Source of the DNA: Escherichia phage kaaroe
Reading direction: 5' to 3' (one strand)
Sequence record: MN850574.1
Length of the DNA stretch: 64,000 nucleotides
Shown: positions 22,358 to 30,251 of the stretch, one piece after another
Position numbering within the stretch: position 1 is the stretch's first letter
Layout of the letters: every line of letters starts with the position of its first letter
Made by a program: the position numbers and the translations under genes
The notes under the pieces: model-generated
The model's database searches: none
Told to the model about the DNA's origin: nothing
What the model saw: only the letters and a program-made list of their open reading frames with translations

Positions 22358-25300
22358 TTAGTCTTCCCAGATAAAGTCTACGGTACGAGTCAGATTATTG
22401 GCGATGATTTTAACATTACCAACTTTGATCCAATCACGAACCGTCATAGAGTTCATTAAACCACCTTCTGCAACTACTGCCCCGATTTCCTGAGCGGTAG
22501 GCTTATTCTGTTTGGTGTAAATTTCACCCCATGCTGTCCATTGACCACCAGTACCGGAACGGATATAATGTTTATGAGTACCATCAGGGGACCAAAGCTG
22601 GGTAAGCCCGTCCGCGTCAGTACCCCATTGCATCAGAGTACCGTTTTTCTTCTCTGGATAAGTTTCTTTGATGTTCTGGGTAGTAACTCGCATATTCCAG
22701 AAACCGATGTTACCGATTGCCGGAGCGGTTGCCGCGCTAGCTTCATGCTTAACAGAAACAATAGGCGCATTATCCATAGTCAGCTTACCGACCATTGTAT
22801 CGCCAGCATTCTTAACAAACTGACGGTTAAGAACTTCGTCGGCGTTTCCTGCGTGTACGATCTGATATTTCTGTCCGGCGATCTCTGTAGTTAACGTTTG
22901 ATGACCTGCCTTGATGTTAACACTTCCACCGTGACCGATATTCAGCATACCATCTGAGGAACGAGTCATTGCCGGATTAGACTGGTCAACTATGTATAAA
23001 CCGCCTTGTTTCGCATACAGGTTACGACCTGCAATAAAGTCTCTATATGCTGTCGCGTCGCCATTGTGTTTCATAGCAAAGGCGTAATGCTCAACGACTC
23101 CACCATCATTGATTTTACCGAAAGCGATAGCATCACTATCAACAACTTGCGCTGTTCCAGTACCACCAACGATAATAGACCAAGAGTTTTTCATGCCTTC
23201 CGATGCGGTTGTGCCATGCAGAGTAATTCCGGTGTGACCGTCAACTCCACGCTCACCCAACACCAGATGACCATTACTCGGAACATCGGTCGAGTTCTTA
23301 GTCACAGACAGAGTTTCAAAGGAACCTGATTTTAAGCACTCTAAATCGCCCTTCACGTTAACGTTTTTATTAAACGTGTAATTGCTCTCTATGGTCTGAT
23401 CAATGTCTCTACGCGCCCATTTAGCGGCCTCTACGTTACCCAATTTCAAACTATTCTGAGCGGTTGCCATCTTAGGTAAGAAATTAGCAAGTGCGTAGTT
23501 TAATCCTTTAGGGGTAACAGCAATTCCGTCATGCTGGTAGTTTCCTAGTTCTTGAGTAGAACCTTGCAGATTATCACCAACAAAACAGTTTTCCTGAGTA
23601 GCAACTTTCAAGAAGCCACGACGCGCTTCGGTTGCTTTCCATGTATCCTCTGTCTGAACAACATATTTGAAGTTCTTCGGAGAAATTGCTACATTGTCCA
23701 TAATACCAGCCACGGTTTCGGCTTGAGTACCAACTCGGATAATACCTTCTTTACCTTCGGTGGCCTTTTTGCCTTGCAGCTTTTTAGGCGTGATGATTGT
23801 AGTATCATCTTGACCAGCGTCAGTAAGCTGAGTAGTCGCAACTTTAGCGACACCTTTTGTATCTTCGGTTGCATCCAGACCGCTGATCATGATACCTTGC
23901 CACAAATCACCAGTAAGGTTAAGCCCCTGAGTCGGATCTACTTTCAAACGCTGTGCATTCTCAAAGAAGGTTTTAATCTTCAATGGGGTAGAAATGCGAT
24001 CATCGTCACGACCTGCGTCAAATTCCGGCTGAGTTGCAATTTCTGCTAAACCGTGTAAAGTTTCCGTTGCGCGGCGAGTATGCAACTTTTTAGGCGTGAT
24101 GATATGGTTATCACTTTGACCTAAGTTTGTTTCTTCCTGAGTTGCAATTTCAGCGATACCAGTGCGCGATTCGGTAGCAGTACGTTTCGTTAGCGTGCGA
24201 GTCGTGATGAGTAAAGCATCTTGCTGGGTTGATTCTGTAGCCCCTTGCACTTCCGCGTCAGTTGCCAGATAGCCAACACCACGGGAAGTTTCGGTCGCCT
24301 TGACTTCGTTGATGTTTTTTGGCGTAACAATTTTAGCATGGTCATTGATGTTATAGATCCCTGTACCAGCTTCGCCACGTCGAGCGGCAGCACTGCCGCC
24401 AGCCTGAACAATTTCAGCAATACCAGCGAGATCTTCGGAAGCGCGACGTTCTTCTAATTTCTTAGGAGTAATAGCGCGGGTATCGTCTAAACCTTCATTG
24501 GTTTCGTGCTGGGTTGCAATTTCCATCACACCACGACGGGCTTCGGTAGCAACACAGTCATTTAACTTTTTAGGCGTAACGATAACATCATCCAGGAAGT
24601 TGGAACCAGTATCTTGATGCGTTTCCGCTTGAGTCGCAATGCGAGCAATACCGCGTCGAGTTTCGTTGGCGGTTTTATTAGCCAGCATTTTTGGTGTTAC
24701 TGCAACTTCGTCGCTAGGATTCTCTTCATGGTTTTTATTCGTTTCAGTTTGGGTAGCCAGTGCAATTACACCAACACGATCTTTACGAGTCGGATCTACT
24801 CGTTCTACAATCGGGTGAGCATGTGCCACCAACCAGTATTTCTTACCATCATCACCTTCTGAATAAGAGAACTCCAGATAAGGTACATAATCATTTGCAG
24901 CGTTGAAAGACAATTCAGATACTCCCGTCCATGTATCGGTCCCATTGAATGGGTACTCGCTACGCTTAGGAAACTGAACCATGTTTTTCTGCATAAGGAT
25001 TTTTGTATCCTCTGTGGCGGTGATAATACGGCAATTCTGGTTTCCGTTCATATACTGCATAGAAACTTGAATACGATCACCCGGCTCGACATTGGTCGGC
25101 AGCGTCAGAGTAACATCACGACCACCAAATACAGCAACATAGCTATTAGGTTGCAAGCGAGTGTCATCGATGATCGGTTTAAGACGAACAGACTGATCAC
25201 CATCCCACAAACGCCATAAGTTTTCCGTCTTGTCAAAGATGAATACACCATGACCGCTACGCTTACCGATAATCTCTTTTAGACCGGACGTGCCAATTGA

Positions 25301-26098
25301 TTGTTCTTCTGCGTGCTCATGAACTTTAACCGTAACGTGGTTGGTTGCGGTTAATCCGTCAAGGTCTGTAGTCTGGATCATGTCGCCATTGTTGGCAAAC
25401 TTAGGAAGCACTAAGGTAATATTACCCAACGAACTACGACGAAATACCTGATCACCATTCTGCATTTGAATAGCATCAATCGCTGGCTGTGCGTACACAC
25501 CGCGTGGCTCTGTTCCTGTCTGATAAACATGCCAACGATTACGAACAAAGATGAAATAGTTCATTGCATACGGGGTAGTGCAATACCATTTTCGGTTGTA
25601 CACATTACCGTTATGGTAAAACTCATGTCCTGTACTCAAGAACGATAATTCGTTAACACCACACTTGCCACCGATATCTTTTACTGTTATAGTGTCTCCC
25701 TCTGCTGGTTTAGTTGGCATAGAGAAAGTCAAGTTTGCAAATTGACCATCTGCTGCGATATAATCACCAGACTGTAAAGGAGTATCACCGGAAGTTGCTG
25801 CAATATAATCCCAACGTGGGTCCGTGCGCAGTGCTTGCCATTTAGTCGGGTCAAAATCACCTGCTGGCTTTGTGATATCTTCTTTTGCATAATACGGACG
25901 GTTTTGATAGATTGTAGTTCCGTATTGATCATAACCGCGAGTTGTGTCATACTGAGTAATACCATTATGGTAATTGAAAAATTCAACGTTGACCGCATCG
26001 GTGTTGACATTCTTATCAGCCAATGCTACATTGACGACCTTTTCATTACCAGCGTCAAAGCCAAATGTGGCCTTGAAATGTTGAGAAAAATCTGCCAT
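22358..26098 (-). CDS. 34: long tail fibre proximal subunit
   Basis: 1246 aa; about nine GxAxxAT(Q)xE repeats (GIARIATQAET, GVMEIATQHET, GIAEIATQEET...). Confidence 0.88.
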   Translation of the reverse strand: MADFSQHFKATFGFDAGNEKVVNVALADKNVNTDAVNVEFFNYHNGITQYDTTRGYDQYGTTIYQNRPYYAKEDITKPAGDFDPTKWQALRTDPRWDYIAATSGDTPLQSGDYIAADGQFANLTFSMPTKPAEGDTITVKDIGGKCGVNELSFLSTGHEFYHNGNVYNRKWYCTTPYAMNYFIFVRNRWHVYQTGTEPRGVYAQPAIDAIQMQNGDQVFRRSSLGNITLVLPKFANNGDMIQTTDLDGLTATNHVTVKVHEHAEEQSIGTSGLKEIIGKRSGHGVFIFDKTENLWRLWDGDQSVRLKPIIDDTRLQPNSYVAVFGGRDVTLTLPTNVEPGDRIQVSMQYMNGNQNCRIITATEDTKILMQKNMVQFPKRSEYPFNGTDTWTGVSELSFNAANDYVPYLEFSYSEGDDGKKYWLVAHAHPIVERVDPTRKDRVGVIALATQTETNKNHEENPSDEVAVTPKMLANKTANETRRGIARIATQAETHQDTGSNFLDDVIVTPKKLNDCVATEARRGVMEIATQHETNEGLDDTRAITPKKLEERRASEDLAGIAEIVQAGGSAAARRGEAGTGIYNINDHAKIVTPKNINEVKATETSRGVGYLATDAEVQGATESTQQDALLITTRTLTKRTATESRTGIAEIATQEETNLGQSDNHIITPKKLHTRRATETLHGLAEIATQPEFDAGRDDDRISTPLKIKTFFENAQRLKVDPTQGLNLTGDLWQGIMISGLDATEDTKGVAKVATTQLTDAGQDDTTIITPKKLQGKKATEGKEGIIRVGTQAETVAGIMDNVAISPKNFKYVVQTEDTWKATEARRGFLKVATQENCFVGDNLQGSTQELGNYQHDGIAVTPKGLNYALANFLPKMATAQNSLKLGNVEAAKWARRDIDQTIESNYTFNKNVNVKGDLECLKSGSFETLSVTKNSTDVPSNGHLVLGERGVDGHTGITLHGTTASEGMKNSWSIIVGGTGTAQVVDSDAIAFGKINDGGVVEHYAFAMKHNGDATAYRDFIAGRNLYAKQGGLYIVDQSNPAMTRSSDGMLNIGHGGSVNIKAGHQTLTTEIAGQKYQIVHAGNADEVLNRQFVKNAGDTMVGKLTMDNAPIVSVKHEASAATAPAIGNIGFWNMRVTTQNIKETYPEKKNGTLMQWGTDADGLTQLWSPDGTHKHYIRSGTGGQWTAWGEIYTKQNKPTAQEIGAVVAEGGLMNSMTVRDWIKVGNVKIIANNLTRTVDFIWED

Positions 26099-26126: not shown

Positions 26127-26134
26127 TATTTATA
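26127..26134 (-). promoter_or_regulatory. T4-type late promoter (TATAAATA) for gene 34
   Basis: Exact TATAAATA on the minus strand ~28 nt upstream of the ATG, then AAAAGGAG SD. Confidence 0.65.
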
Positions 26135-26172: not shown

Positions 26173-26358
26173 ATGGTTAAAGTTGATTTGTCAGAAGGTG
26201 CAAAATGGGTAGTTGACAGAATCCCTGATAAGGATTACAATTATTTCCGCGCCGAATTAAACAATGCAATTCTGCGAGTTATGGAGAAGTACGGGTATGA
26301 CCGTGAAGTATCTAACTCGTTTGGCGAATATGTTGTTGTGAGAGTGGAGAGAACTTAA
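26173..26358 (+). CDS. hypothetical protein (61 aa)
   Basis: ORF track; AGAGGA SD; divergent from gene 34. Confidence 0.5.
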   Translation: MVKVDLSEGAKWVVDRIPDKDYNYFRAELNNAILRVMEKYGYDREVSNSFGEYVVVRVERT

Positions 26359-26360
26359 TT

Positions 26361-27308
26361 ATGACGTATAACCCATTTACAAAAACGACCGCTACACTTA
26401 ATGATTTCTTCGATGATCCAGAAGATAAACTGCCGGAAGGTGTGCATTTGATTGATATGTCGCAGCTTATGATTGCTACTATCTCACATACCTTTAAACC
26501 GGAAGATCCTATTAATGAAGGTATGATCCGTCATCTTATCCTTGACACCATGCGTTATAATATGACAAAATTCAAAGAGCAATACCCAATTACGGTACTT
26601 GCCTTTGATTCAAGCAAAGGTTACTGGCGACGTGATATCGCACCTTACTATAAACGCAACCGTAAGGAAAAACGAGACGCAGATCCGCGTGATTGGGAGA
26701 TGATCTTTGCTGCGATCAATAAGATCACCGAAGAGTTTAAAGAGAACATGCCTTATCACGTTATTAAGGTTGACAAAGTTGAAGCGGATGATATAATCGC
26801 TGTGTTAACTAAAAAGTTTTCTGTCGAAGGTCGCCAGGTGCTGATCAACTCAGGCGATGGTGACTACACACAGTTACACAAATACAAAAACGTGAAACAG
26901 TGGTCGCCAGTACAGAAAGCGTGGAAGAAATGCAAATATGGTAGCCCTTACAAAGACCTTATGGTAAAATGTGTTAAGGGTGACGCAAAAGACGGTGTAG
27001 CTTCTATCAAGTGCCGTAGTGATTTCATTATCTCACGACTGGAAGGAGAACGAGCTAAACCAATTGCAACCAAATGGTTAGAGCAAATTTTCGATGCCGA
27101 AGATCCAAAGTCTTTGATGACAGAGGAAGAAGCACGACGCTTTGACGAAAACCGCGAACTTATTGATTTTGAATTTATTCCTGATAACATCGAATATGAA
27201 ATTTTGTTAGCATGGGAGAAATCTAAACCAGCACCACGCGGTAAAATTTATAACTATTTTGTAACAAATGCGTTAGTTAAAATGTTGCAGAAAATTGGTG
27301 AGTTCTAA
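26361..27308 (+). CDS. rnh: RNase H (FEN-family 5'-3' exonuclease)
   Basis: 315 aa; strong similarity to T4 RNase H (GYWRRD, ADDIIAVLTKKFS, DGDYTQLHKY, KQWSP, PRGKIYNYF). Confidence 0.93.
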   Translation: MTYNPFTKTTATLNDFFDDPEDKLPEGVHLIDMSQLMIATISHTFKPEDPINEGMIRHLILDTMRYNMTKFKEQYPITVLAFDSSKGYWRRDIAPYYKRNRKEKRDADPRDWEMIFAAINKITEEFKENMPYHVIKVDKVEADDIIAVLTKKFSVEGRQVLINSGDGDYTQLHKYKNVKQWSPVQKAWKKCKYGSPYKDLMVKCVKGDAKDGVASIKCRSDFIISRLEGERAKPIATKWLEQIFDAEDPKSLMTEEEARRFDENRELIDFEFIPDNIEYEILLAWEKSKPAPRGKIYNYFVTNALVKMLQKIGEF

Positions 27309-27318
27309 GGGTTGATAT

Positions 27319-27915
27319 ATGAAAGAACTTGAATTAAAATACTATGCACACTCACAAATTGGCGTCGAAACAATCTGTGATTTGTGGGTAGCAATGTATG
27401 ACGGGTACAATCTAGTAGATCGTGCTAACACTCTAAAACACGAATTTTATTATGATACCGAAGATCATGCACTGCGTCGAAAAGGAATTTATGCTCGACT
27501 TGACGTTAATAGATCATTGATCATGGTCAAAATAGGTGATAGTGAATCTGGACTCTTCAACCGAGAAGAAATTACTTTTTCAACAATGGATGATTTCTAT
27601 CATTATGTTGATAGTCTAGGCGTAAACTCCGACCTTATCGTTCCTTTATTGCAAGTAATGACATACCGCAAGTCATTGACACTTGACCTTGAGGGTGCTA
27701 TAGTGGAAATGTGCAAAGACACTTTCTATTATTGCAAAGTCGGCGAAAGAATGGGAGAGGCTCACTATGAACTTGAGTTCGAGTTAAAATCAGGTGATGA
27801 AAAAGCACTTGACATTATCCGAGAAATGATGCTAGAATATGTTGGTGACGATTTAAGTCCTAGCGAATTTTCAAAAGCTGAACGTGGTTTTCAATTAATG
27901 ACGAAAGAGGGTTAA
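27319..27915 (+). CDS. CYTH-like (triphosphate tunnel metalloenzyme) domain protein
   Basis: N-terminal ELELKYY (ExExK) and C-terminal HYELEFELK acidic strand; 198 aa. Confidence 0.5.
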   Translation: MKELELKYYAHSQIGVETICDLWVAMYDGYNLVDRANTLKHEFYYDTEDHALRRKGIYARLDVNRSLIMVKIGDSESGLFNREEITFSTMDDFYHYVDSLGVNSDLIVPLLQVMTYRKSLTLDLEGAIVEMCKDTFYYCKVGERMGEAHYELEFELKSGDEKALDIIREMMLEYVGDDLSPSEFSKAERGFQLMTKEG

Positions 27916-27919
27916 TATT

Positions 27920-28195
27920 ATGACTGAACAGAAAAAAGAAAAAGTAGTATTTGACGAAGCAGTGCACGGAAATACCCTGGCACAACTGATTAAAGAAGCC
28001 AGCGATCAGAAAACCATTCAAGAAGCATATGGCGATAAGATCAAAGAGATCAAACAGCGTGCTAAAGAAGAATTAGGCGTAGATGGTAAAATGTGGGGCA
28101 TTCTGTTTAAACTGTATCACCAGCAACAGCGCGAAACCTTCGAAGCAGAACGCGATGAAGCAGTAGAACTCTATGATCGGGTGTTCAATGCTTAA
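27920..28195 (+). CDS. dsbA: double-stranded DNA binding protein DsbA
   Basis: 91 aa; similarity to T4 DsbA (VFDEAVHG, LIKEAS, ELGVDGKM, EAERDEAVELYDRVF). Confidence 0.85.
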   Translation: MTEQKKEKVVFDEAVHGNTLAQLIKEASDQKTIQEAYGDKIKEIKQRAKEELGVDGKMWGILFKLYHQQQRETFEAERDEAVELYDRVFNA

Positions 28196-28451: not shown

Positions 28452-29132
28452 ATGATCAGAAACCGTCTTCCTCCAGATCCAGATATGCGAATTAATGCTA
28501 AATCTGTGTATATGTTATATTGCATGATGAAAGCTCATATGAACGGGCGTTATGATTGCGTAAAATACAATTGGAGGATGCGGTTATCTGATGCCGCATT
28601 CAATAAACGCAGAGATAAGTATTATTTCGCGAAATTAGCGGAAAAGTACAATCTAAGAGAATTATACTTCCTATTCCTAAGCAATCTGGTAGCTAATACC
28701 GATGCATGGGTAGGTGAAATCACCGATGTTGACGCATACGGGTTTTACATGGAGTACATCGGTAAAATCACTGATGCGGCAACACGATTTGACGATGACA
28801 TTAAAAGTCTTGTATACTTCTCAGAGAAACGCGGGGTTACTCTTAAAGAGCTAATTACATACAATCCCGCAACCGAAACTAGCGGTATATTTAAACTACT
28901 GCAAAATCGGATTATATCGTTTGAGTCGTTTATGTTGTTAGATAGCTTTCTAAATATAATCGACGAACACGACAAGGTAGCCAAAGACTTGATTTGGCAA
29001 ACTTATAGTGTTAAAATGAAGGCGTACAAGAAACTACTTGTTATTGACGCCGCAAAAGCAAGAGCATTATTTGTTAAAGTAGTTAAAGAGTGTAAAGAAA
29101 TATCTCAATTAAAAGCCGAAACAAATAGTTGA
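28452..29132 (+). CDS. 59: helicase loader gp59
   Basis: 226 aa; similarity to T4 gp59 (KSVYMLYCMMKAHMNGRYDCVKYNW, LVANTDAW, SFLNIIDEHD). Confidence 0.9.
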   Translation: MIRNRLPPDPDMRINAKSVYMLYCMMKAHMNGRYDCVKYNWRMRLSDAAFNKRRDKYYFAKLAEKYNLRELYFLFLSNLVANTDAWVGEITDVDAYGFYMEYIGKITDAATRFDDDIKSLVYFSEKRGVTLKELITYNPATETSGIFKLLQNRIISFESFMLLDSFLNIIDEHDKVAKDLIWQTYSVKMKAYKKLLVIDAAKARALFVKVVKECKEISQLKAETNS

Positions 29133-29156
29133 CAAGTAAATTTAAATCTGTATAAT
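29129..29156 (+). promoter_or_regulatory. sigma70-type promoter for gene 32
   Basis: TTGACA, 16-nt spacer, TATAAT; AU-rich leader follows. Confidence 0.55.
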
Positions 29157-29192
29157 AGTCTAGTAAATTAATCAAAAGAAGGAATAGTGAAT

Positions 29193-30171: not shown

Positions 30172-30197
30172 AGCCTCCCTTCGGGGAGGCTTTTTAT
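30172..30197 (+). terminator. intrinsic terminator after gene 32 (UUCG-loop hairpin)
   Basis: AGCCTCCC-TTCG-GGGAGGCT followed by TTTTTATT. Confidence 0.7.
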
Positions 30198-30223: not shown

Positions 30224-30251
30224 TTGACATGTTGGCGAGGTAATGTATAAT
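30224..30251 (+). promoter_or_regulatory. sigma70-type early promoter
   Basis: TTGACA, 16-nt spacer, TATAAT, then CATCGAAACAACGGAGGATAAAAATATG leader. Confidence 0.55.

Follow-up and report, generated by a model that had tools for sequence, protein, structure and literature searches.

Tripolyphosphate (PPPi) is the default substrate of the CYTH or triphosphate tunnel metalloenzyme (TTM) family, and we know of no bacterial or phage CYTH triphosphatase with a known physiological role. Escherichia coli YgiF (structures 5a60 and 5a61), a cellular housekeeping protein, combines a CYTH with a CHAD domain. Class IV adenylate cyclases (Aeromonas CyaB and YpAC-IV; 2fjt and 3n10) share the superfamily and the barrel, and three signatures part them from hydrolytic TTMs: an HFxxxxExExK motif, replacement of the central arginine of xRxR by a small residue, and a change of ExE to ExA on β8 (Vogt et al. 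2021; PMC8233210). Thiamine triphosphatases carry W/YxRxR, whose aromatic residue stacks against the organic moiety of their substrate beside the plug helix, and other TTMs have a small residue at this stacking position (PMC8233210). In viruses the TTM fold is found in Aeromonas phage proteins (65.2, D3, Aeh1 ORF004c), in jumbo phages and in Cet1-type capping enzymes, and the jumbo-phage CYTH enzymes have been proposed to degrade unwanted NTPs (Iyer et al. 2021). A literature search for phage CYTH enzymes and for the gene described here in RB49-like phages yielded nothing but annotation tables and one broad proposal concerning jumbo phages. The search found no biochemical or genetic work on any member of the clade, and a Kongming dITP paper does not cover phage triphosphatases.

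The DNA analysed here, referred to as the window, is a stretch of 64,000 nt from Escherichia phage kaaroe, a Krischvirus and thus an RB49/JSE-like 'pseudo-T-even' coliphage. An ORF of 198 codons, running from ATG to TAA as an earlier sequence-only reading had described, lies between a T4-type rnh gene (RNase H; 26361-27308; PF09293 and PF02739) and dsbA (27920-28195; PF11126). The rnh gene ends 10 nt before the ORF, dsbA begins 4 nt past its end, and the order on the single strand is rnh, CYTH, dsbA, gp33, gp59, gp32. The CYTH gene thus appears to be tightly coupled to rnh. In T4, rnh and dsbA are separated by 8 nt with no gene inserted, and the remark that T4 has no gene in this slot was therefore correct. 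Its conservation, its profile match and its confidently predicted fold led us to reject a chance ORF. Neither Rfam nor a tRNA scan gave anything relevant at this locus, and the NCBIfam and PADLOC libraries gave no match. A further ORF of 61 aa (26173-26358, +; PHROG 3594, unknown function) lies directly 5' of rnh; every Krischvirus locus examined has it at this position, and T4 lacks it.

Assignment of the protein to the CYTH family is not new. The gene is 99.7% identical to that of FL15, 99.2% to that of JSE and 98.3% to that of RB49, where the orthologue is named RB49p245 or RB49ORF244c. The RB49 RefSeq record notes that RB49p245 is 'similar to P45267, P30871, HI1598, ygiF', and RB49ORF244c was tabulated as a CYTH domain match with an E-value of 0.0026 (Nolan et al. 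2006; PMC1524935). Most metagenomic orthologues have a precomputed PF01928 match. GenBank orthologues are named 'inorganic triphosphatase' in Makalu_001 and Makalu_002 and 'adenylate cyclase' in PHB13, AV108 and KMB43; the remaining records read 'hypothetical protein', and PHROG 14893, which matches over the full length (E = 1.5e-131), is labelled 'unknown function'. Given these records, the novelty implied by the sequence-only reading was overstated, and as a bare domain assignment the result matters little. The enzyme family is well known, and this protein is one of its divergent members, YgiF-like and stand-alone. What is newly described here is its YxRxD/K40 tunnel variant and a deeply divergent allelic core over a conserved tunnel. 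One orthologue (P0036, with the Skers-type allele discussed below) is filed at NCBI as the Escherichia coli protein AAHF58_000195 on a contig of 163,765 bp, which is almost certainly a Krischvirus genome inside a bacterial assembly.

To define the distribution of the gene, we searched 50,697 phage records with tblastn. The CYTH gene was found in 58, all Krischvirus, and the Krischvirus rnh and dsbA-33 segment was likewise found in 58, so the gene is universal in the genus. In every one of these genomes it lies between rnh and dsbA. A single copy among the 58, that of vB_EcoM_G2494 (L014, 301-896), is disrupted: codon 59, within the Y-A-R motif, has lost one nucleotide, and the copy is annotated as two ORFs. 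The 1-nt deletion reflects either a true frameshift or an error of sequencing; if real, the CYTH gene is dispensable at least in the laboratory. A search of 5.8 billion proteins returned only 43 clusters, with identities down to 45%, and when 1.84 billion representatives were searched exhaustively with a profile, E-values were below 1e-30 for 3 and below 1e-10 for 6, beyond which came a cloud of CYTH proteins of ~200 aa and CYTH-CHAD proteins of ~500 aa. More distant clade members have identities of 45-48% (P0043), 35-40% (P0044) and 30-35% (P0045). All clade members with visible context, which for P0044 and P0045 comes from short read-assembly contigs, have the gene directly 5' of dsbA-gp33, with rnh 5' where the contig extends that far. 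IMG/VR scans for P0044 and P0045 gave no match, and tblastn with the distant clade members against cultured phages matched only Krischvirus. Other phage and giant-virus CYTH proteins, including the viral ones named above, are structurally remote (TM-score of at most 0.5), were missed by sequence search and lie at different genomic positions, and we regard them as independent acquisitions; Klebsiella Eowyn, uncultured phages and giant-virus capping enzymes belong to this remote group. In Krischvirus and in the uncultured phages related to it, the gene is thus fixed as an accessory gene. An accessory enzyme present in every Krischvirus genome, inside a frozen cluster of replication and late-transcription genes, should serve infection.

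The CYTH assignment itself proved right. Pfam CYTH (PF01928) matched residues 41-190 with an E-value of 4e-6 and 27.2 bits, above the gathering score of 23.2, and all proteins returned by the profile search of 1.84 billion were CYTH-like in length and architecture. The AlphaFold2 model, for which 15 members of the family were used, had a mean pLDDT of 91.6 and a pTM of 0.85 and consisted of eight long β-strands plus helices, giving the predicted eight-stranded antiparallel β-barrel with the closed tunnel of the CYTH/TTM superfamily. A Foldseek search of the PDB placed TTM-fold proteins at the top, the first being full-length YgiF 5a60 (E = 1.7e-12, TMq 0.75, 24% identity). In a structural comparison YgiF scored 20.5 (2.6 Å over 183 residues, 25% identity), ahead of BH2851 (16.3), a plant TTM3-like protein (15.9), human thiamine triphosphatase (14.6), the Mimivirus capping triphosphatase (13.4), the Yersinia class IV adenylate cyclase (12.3) and Cet1 (11.3). 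YgiF is thus the closest solved structure by a clear margin, and it was also the only PDB entry reached by sequence with HMMER (E = 0.038 with the single sequence and 0.004 with the profile). Since the fold is present in the model and its structural matches are TTMs, structure prediction does not refute the original assignment. The match covers residues 6-201 of the 435 of YgiF; the kaaroe protein has no CHAD domain and ends after the plug helix. YgiF belongs to the cell, whereas the kaaroe protein is a phage product during infection.

Table 1. Features of the CYTH gene and its surroundings in the window
Feature	Position (nt)	Strand	Basis and remarks
Candidate promoter: perfect sigma-70 consensus TTGACA-16-TATAAT with TG (extended -10), inside rnh	26770-26797	+	Consensus match only; 520 nt upstream
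rnh stop codon and 10-nt spacer with Shine-Dalgarno-like AAGGG (taagggttgatatATG)	27306-27318	+	Read from sequence
CYTH/TTM stand-alone protein gene, 198 aa	27319-27915	+	ORF, Pfam, PHROG, AlphaFold2, structural match to YgiF
ELELKYY, residues 3-9	27325-27345	+	
ExExK hallmark E3, E5, K7 on β1	27325-27339	+	98-sequence alignment; invariant in family alignment A1
Variable core, ~aa 10-150	27346-27768	+	12-55% nt difference between Krischvirus genomes
K40 codon, clade-specific basic residue	27436-27438	+	Alignment column counts; invariant in A1
Y58-A-R60-L-D62 on β3	27490-27504	+	98-sequence alignment; motif definitions from PMC8233210
HYELEFELK on β8, residues 149-157	27763-27789	+	Alignment; E151 and K157 also tunnel-facing
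3' block, aa 151-198	27769-27915	+	Backbone-like in all Krischvirus alleles; carries the dsbA ribosome-binding site
SKAERGF, start of the C-terminal plug helix	27871-27891	+	AlphaFold2 helix 186-194; alignment; HMMER against 5a60

To examine the active site, we aligned YgiF and the phage clade with 90 related stand-alone proteins that the deep search had returned (98 sequences in all, L-INS-i), and took residue roles from PMC4641920. Residues 1-199 of YgiF were rebuilt from HMMER output, and their numbering agrees with the residues named by Martinez et al. (2015). The ExExK residues E3, E5 and K7 aligned with YgiF E4, E6 and K8, of which E4 and E6 are metal-2 ligands (PMC4641920). On β8, E153 aligned with E160, a metal-1 ligand invariant across all TTMs, and E155 with E162, a further metal-2 ligand (PMC4641920). 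The N-terminal ELELKYY and C-terminal HYELEFELK had been put forward as the acidic strands of a CYTH enzyme, and these alignments bear that out. R60 corresponds to R56, the catalytic arginine whose mutation kills YgiF, and K71 to K69, which binds substrate and orients E4 (PMC4641920). The conserved tunnel residues R82, E84, R117, E130 and D134 match R81, E83, R126, E139 and D143 of YgiF, while K186 and R189 match K191 and R194 of the plug helix. All residues proven important in YgiF or AtTTM3 by mutagenesis or structure are present, including E151, and the active-site residues listed here are invariant or nearly so across the phage family (alignment A1). Glutamate occupies both the 153 and the 155 columns in 92/92 relatives, and column 60 is arginine in 91/92. 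Of the basic tunnel set, R60, K71, R82, R117, K186 and R189 are present and only the second, non-essential arginine is altered, to D62. The β3 register adopted here is solely that of the multiple alignment. HMMER pairwise and profile alignments shift β3 by two residues and put Y58 opposite YgiF R56, as if the catalytic arginine were missing. This register was set aside; L-INS-i, through the intermediate sequences, puts R60 there.

Several tunnel positions set the phage clade apart. Position 58 is A, S, G, T or V in 89/92 relatives and tyrosine in the kaaroe protein; position 62 (YgiF R58) is arginine in 88/92 and aspartate here. The YgiF-type combination of a small residue with RxR on β3 is therefore absent. 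D or N at position 62 is restricted to the phage clade and co-occurs perfectly with K40 on the adjoining strand, where relatives have L, Q or M, which looks like the relocation of a basic group. In addition, F136 stands where 69/92 relatives have glycine. Compared directly with YgiF, the kaaroe protein has aspartate for R58, tyrosine for the glycine two before the catalytic arginine, lysine for leucine at position 40 and phenylalanine for glycine at 136. In the register used here, which differs by two residues from the HMMER pairwise one, Y58 and R60 would fall on the aromatic and central positions of the thiamine triphosphatase signature W/YxRxR, and the last arginine is D62. The protein reads YxRxD, its identity to mammalian thiamine triphosphatase (THTPA; 3bhd, 5a64) is only ~14-18%, and YgiF is clearly closer. 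Replacement of the second arginine of RxR by D62 could alter or weaken triphosphate binding. PPPase activity is abundant in E. coli, where inorganic pyrophosphatase already performs most PPPi hydrolysis and PPPi is not detectable (PMC3440374), so the default substrate would bring the phage no obvious benefit. Together, the clade-specific changes and these E. coli findings make an organic triphosphate more attractive than bare PPPi, and the residue pattern suggests a small organic triphosphate with its organic part towards the plug helix. Candidates are canonical and non-canonical NTPs or dNTPs, the thiamine compounds thiamine triphosphate and adenosine thiamine triphosphate, pppGpp and 5'-triphosphate RNA ends. 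An alarmone had been put forward in the sequence-only reading as a possible substrate. E. coli accumulates thiamine triphosphate in amino-acid starvation and adenosine thiamine triphosphate in energy starvation (PMC8615392).

Comparison of the locus between Krischvirus genomes revealed an allelic mosaic. The cluster ORF61-rnh-dsbA-33-59 is 95-100% identical in nucleotide sequence across these genomes, whereas the variable core of the CYTH gene exists as separate classes of allele, 45-88% identical, with sharp boundaries within the gene (loci L001, L004 and L007-L011). Relative to the window, core identity is ~100% for the RB49-type allele, 83-98% for that of GEC-3S, 80-88% for the Phi1/Brandy/MIZ2 type, 50-58% for the Skers type and 45-67% for the metagenomic P0042 type. 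The first ~25 nt and the last 147 nt of the gene are at backbone identity. By Nei-Gojobori estimates, codons 151-198 have a dS of 0-0.25 and a dN of 0.01-0.02, and the flanking genes a dS of 0.02-0.2 with ω of 0-0.1. Against the Phi1 type the core has a dS of 0.41-0.50, a dN of 0.11-0.13 and ω of ~0.3. In comparisons with the Skers-type and P0042-type cores, synonymous sites have reached saturation (pS 0.77-0.80) and dN is ~0.6, as large as the distance to a separate, uncultured lineage in which rnh, dsbA and gp33 show a dN of only 0.12-0.15. The Skers-type and P0042-type cores are also compositional outliers, with a GC content of 0.32-0.34 and a GC3 of 0.21-0.26 compared to ~0.40 in the backbone. 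The simplest reading is that these are old alleles, probably from related phages of lower GC content, which were swapped by homologous recombination, with breakpoints in the two conserved ends of the gene, 5' (ExExK) and 3'. In sister lineages the CYTH protein shares 35-48% amino-acid identity compared to 70-82% for its neighbours, and it has therefore evolved ~3 times faster. Positive selection was considered and found unsupported: ω is ~0.3 in the core and synonymous sites are themselves elevated or saturated, so old alleles, recombination and looser constraint account for the divergence, with no demonstrable positive selection. Two smaller patches were seen nearby. The 3' end of rnh (27120-27240) is 73-77% identical to Skers, Phi1, GEC-3S and RB49 and 95-100% to Brandy, MIZ2 and the P0042-type contigs, and thus appears as two alleles that assort independently of the CYTH alleles. 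In gp59, positions 28740-28799 are 82-88% identical to most Krischvirus genomes and 100% to RB49, a small recombinant patch.

Variation within the core is not evenly spread. On its strands, tunnel-facing positions had an entropy of 0.59 bits compared to 1.29 bits for outward-facing ones (Mann-Whitney p = 6e-5), and helices and loops reached 1.42 and 1.32 bits. Selection therefore acts on the tunnel: the interior is conserved while the exterior is free or driven to change, and the divergence is not decay. The mosaic is in effect a natural experiment on what selection may act upon besides catalysis, with one tunnel kept beneath very different surfaces.

Collectively, fold, residues and gene context suggest that the protein is probably a stand-alone YgiF-type TTM, predicted to act as a phosphohydrolase and to be made with the replication genes. 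The full two-metal catalytic set, mapped by alignment on PMC4641920, is consistent with the earlier proposal that it hydrolyses a triphosphate substrate. From characterised homologues, a triphosphate-metal complex would enter the eight-stranded β-barrel and be held by K7, R60, K71, R82 and R117 together with K186 and R189 of the plug helix. E153 would complete metal 1, and a second metal on E3, E5 and E155 would activate water for attack on the terminal phosphate, so that the products would be Pi and a diphosphate. The other branch of that proposal, a CyaB-type adenylyl cyclase engaged in nucleotide signalling, finds no support. A class IV cyclase raising cAMP during infection would share the superfamily, and the name is used in the PHB13, AV108 and KMB43 records. 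However, all three class IV signatures are missing: the protein begins M-K-E-L-E-L-K, and with ExExK starting at residue 3 there is no room for HF; the central arginine of the xRxR strand is kept as the invariant R60; and the second glutamate of the β8 ExE is kept as the invariant E155. Because these signatures fail and the structural match to a cyclase is weak, cyclase activity is very unlikely. Several deposited phage genomes carry the label 'adenylate cyclase', which originates from the class IV enzymes; it is very likely wrong and could be corrected. It also seems improbable that the protein is an RNA 5'-triphosphatase that takes the γ-phosphate off pppRNA, whether from the primase-made pppApC... 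primers removed by the adjacent RNase H or from host mRNA 5' ends for faster decay. Neither in structure nor in sequence was the Cet1/viral capping branch closest, the protein being much nearer to the small-molecule YgiF branch, and in the AlphaFold2 model the plug helix shuts one end of the tunnel. T4, moreover, removes its primers without such a gene, and for accessory genes of T4-like phages the identity of the neighbours counts for little as evidence. A special case of the hydrolase reading, which we hold possible though doubtful, fixes the substrate as inorganic: the protein would simply cleave inorganic tripolyphosphate or short polyphosphate chains, in the manner of a YgiF tunnel domain that lacks CHAD, and might, with the same reserve, remove PPPi produced by, for example, dNTP triphosphohydrolases or polyphosphate turnover. 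YgiF is its nearest solved structure; YgiF, AtTTM3, NeuTTM and SaTTM are all PPPases; and its nearest non-phage relatives are the CYTH and CYTH-CHAD proteins noted above. Against this stand the host pyrophosphatase and the undetectable PPPi, the aromatic residue at position 58, a site that is otherwise aromatic only in substrate-stacking thiamine triphosphatases, and D62, which takes away a phosphate-binding arginine.

The allele mosaic bears on two further readings, both of which give weight to the surface of the protein. In one, catalysis is secondary or absent and the protein acts through its variable surface or as a triphosphate sponge, for example as an inhibitor or decoy of a host factor. 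This would account for the extreme allelic diversity, the faster divergence of the core, its higher ω compared to at most 0.1 in the flanks, and the concentration of variation on the outside. Nevertheless, catalytic as well as binding residues are invariant across alleles whose synonymous divergence is saturated, and ω is well below 1 and so gives no direct sign of positive selection; we give this reading little credence. The other, which we judge unlikely but less so, keeps the hydrolase and makes it an agent of host takeover or counter-defence that destroys a stress or immune triphosphate of E. coli, with a surface arms race recorded in the alleles. Candidate targets would be thiamine triphosphate, adenosine thiamine triphosphate, ITP or dITP from deaminase-based defences, pppGpp or a novel signal. 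If this were true, a host factor would recognise or inhibit the enzyme surface, and divergent, recombining alleles around an invariant tunnel would be the record of that contest.

The proposed timing of the predicted phosphohydrolase draws on transcription signals in the window. We found 26 sigma-70-like sites on the + strand between 25900 and 30400 compared to 12.8 ± 3.9 in shuffles. Three matched all 12 of 12 consensus positions: the site inside rnh (Table 1) and those at 29129-29156 and 30224-30251. The second coincides with an early promoter annotated before gene 32 in the RB49 record. The site inside rnh is a candidate early promoter of a CYTH-dsbA-33-59 message, and no terminator-like site was found between it and the CYTH gene. 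The CYTH gene is thus likely to be expressed early together with rnh, dsbA, 33 and 59, which serve replication and late transcription, and through this co-transcription the CYTH protein would probably be made early. A weaker site at 27809-27838 (11 of 12) was considered as an embedded dsbA promoter that might preserve the 3' block. Its hexamers are not kept in sister lineages with saturated synonymous sites, so an embedded promoter is unsupported and recombination explains the block.

Other signals in the window concern neighbouring genes. Gene 32 is directly followed (30172-30191, +) by a strong hairpin that resembles an intrinsic terminator, AGCCTCCC-TTCG-GGGAGGCT with a run of T behind it; this hairpin matches the position of the GEC-3S terminator after gene 32 and would close the rnh-to-32 transcription unit. 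The T4-type late promoter motif TATAAATA occurs just 5' of the long-tail-fibre gene 34 (22358-26098, -), at 26127-26134 on the - strand, and is present in only three copies within the 64-kb window. The gp59-gp32 spacer (29133-29186) is empty in kaaroe. Skers has an HNH homing endonuclease there (L001, 5802-6398) and T4 the GIY-YIG endonuclease SegG (L002, 2410-3042), which suggests that this junction is a recurrent landing site for homing endonucleases.
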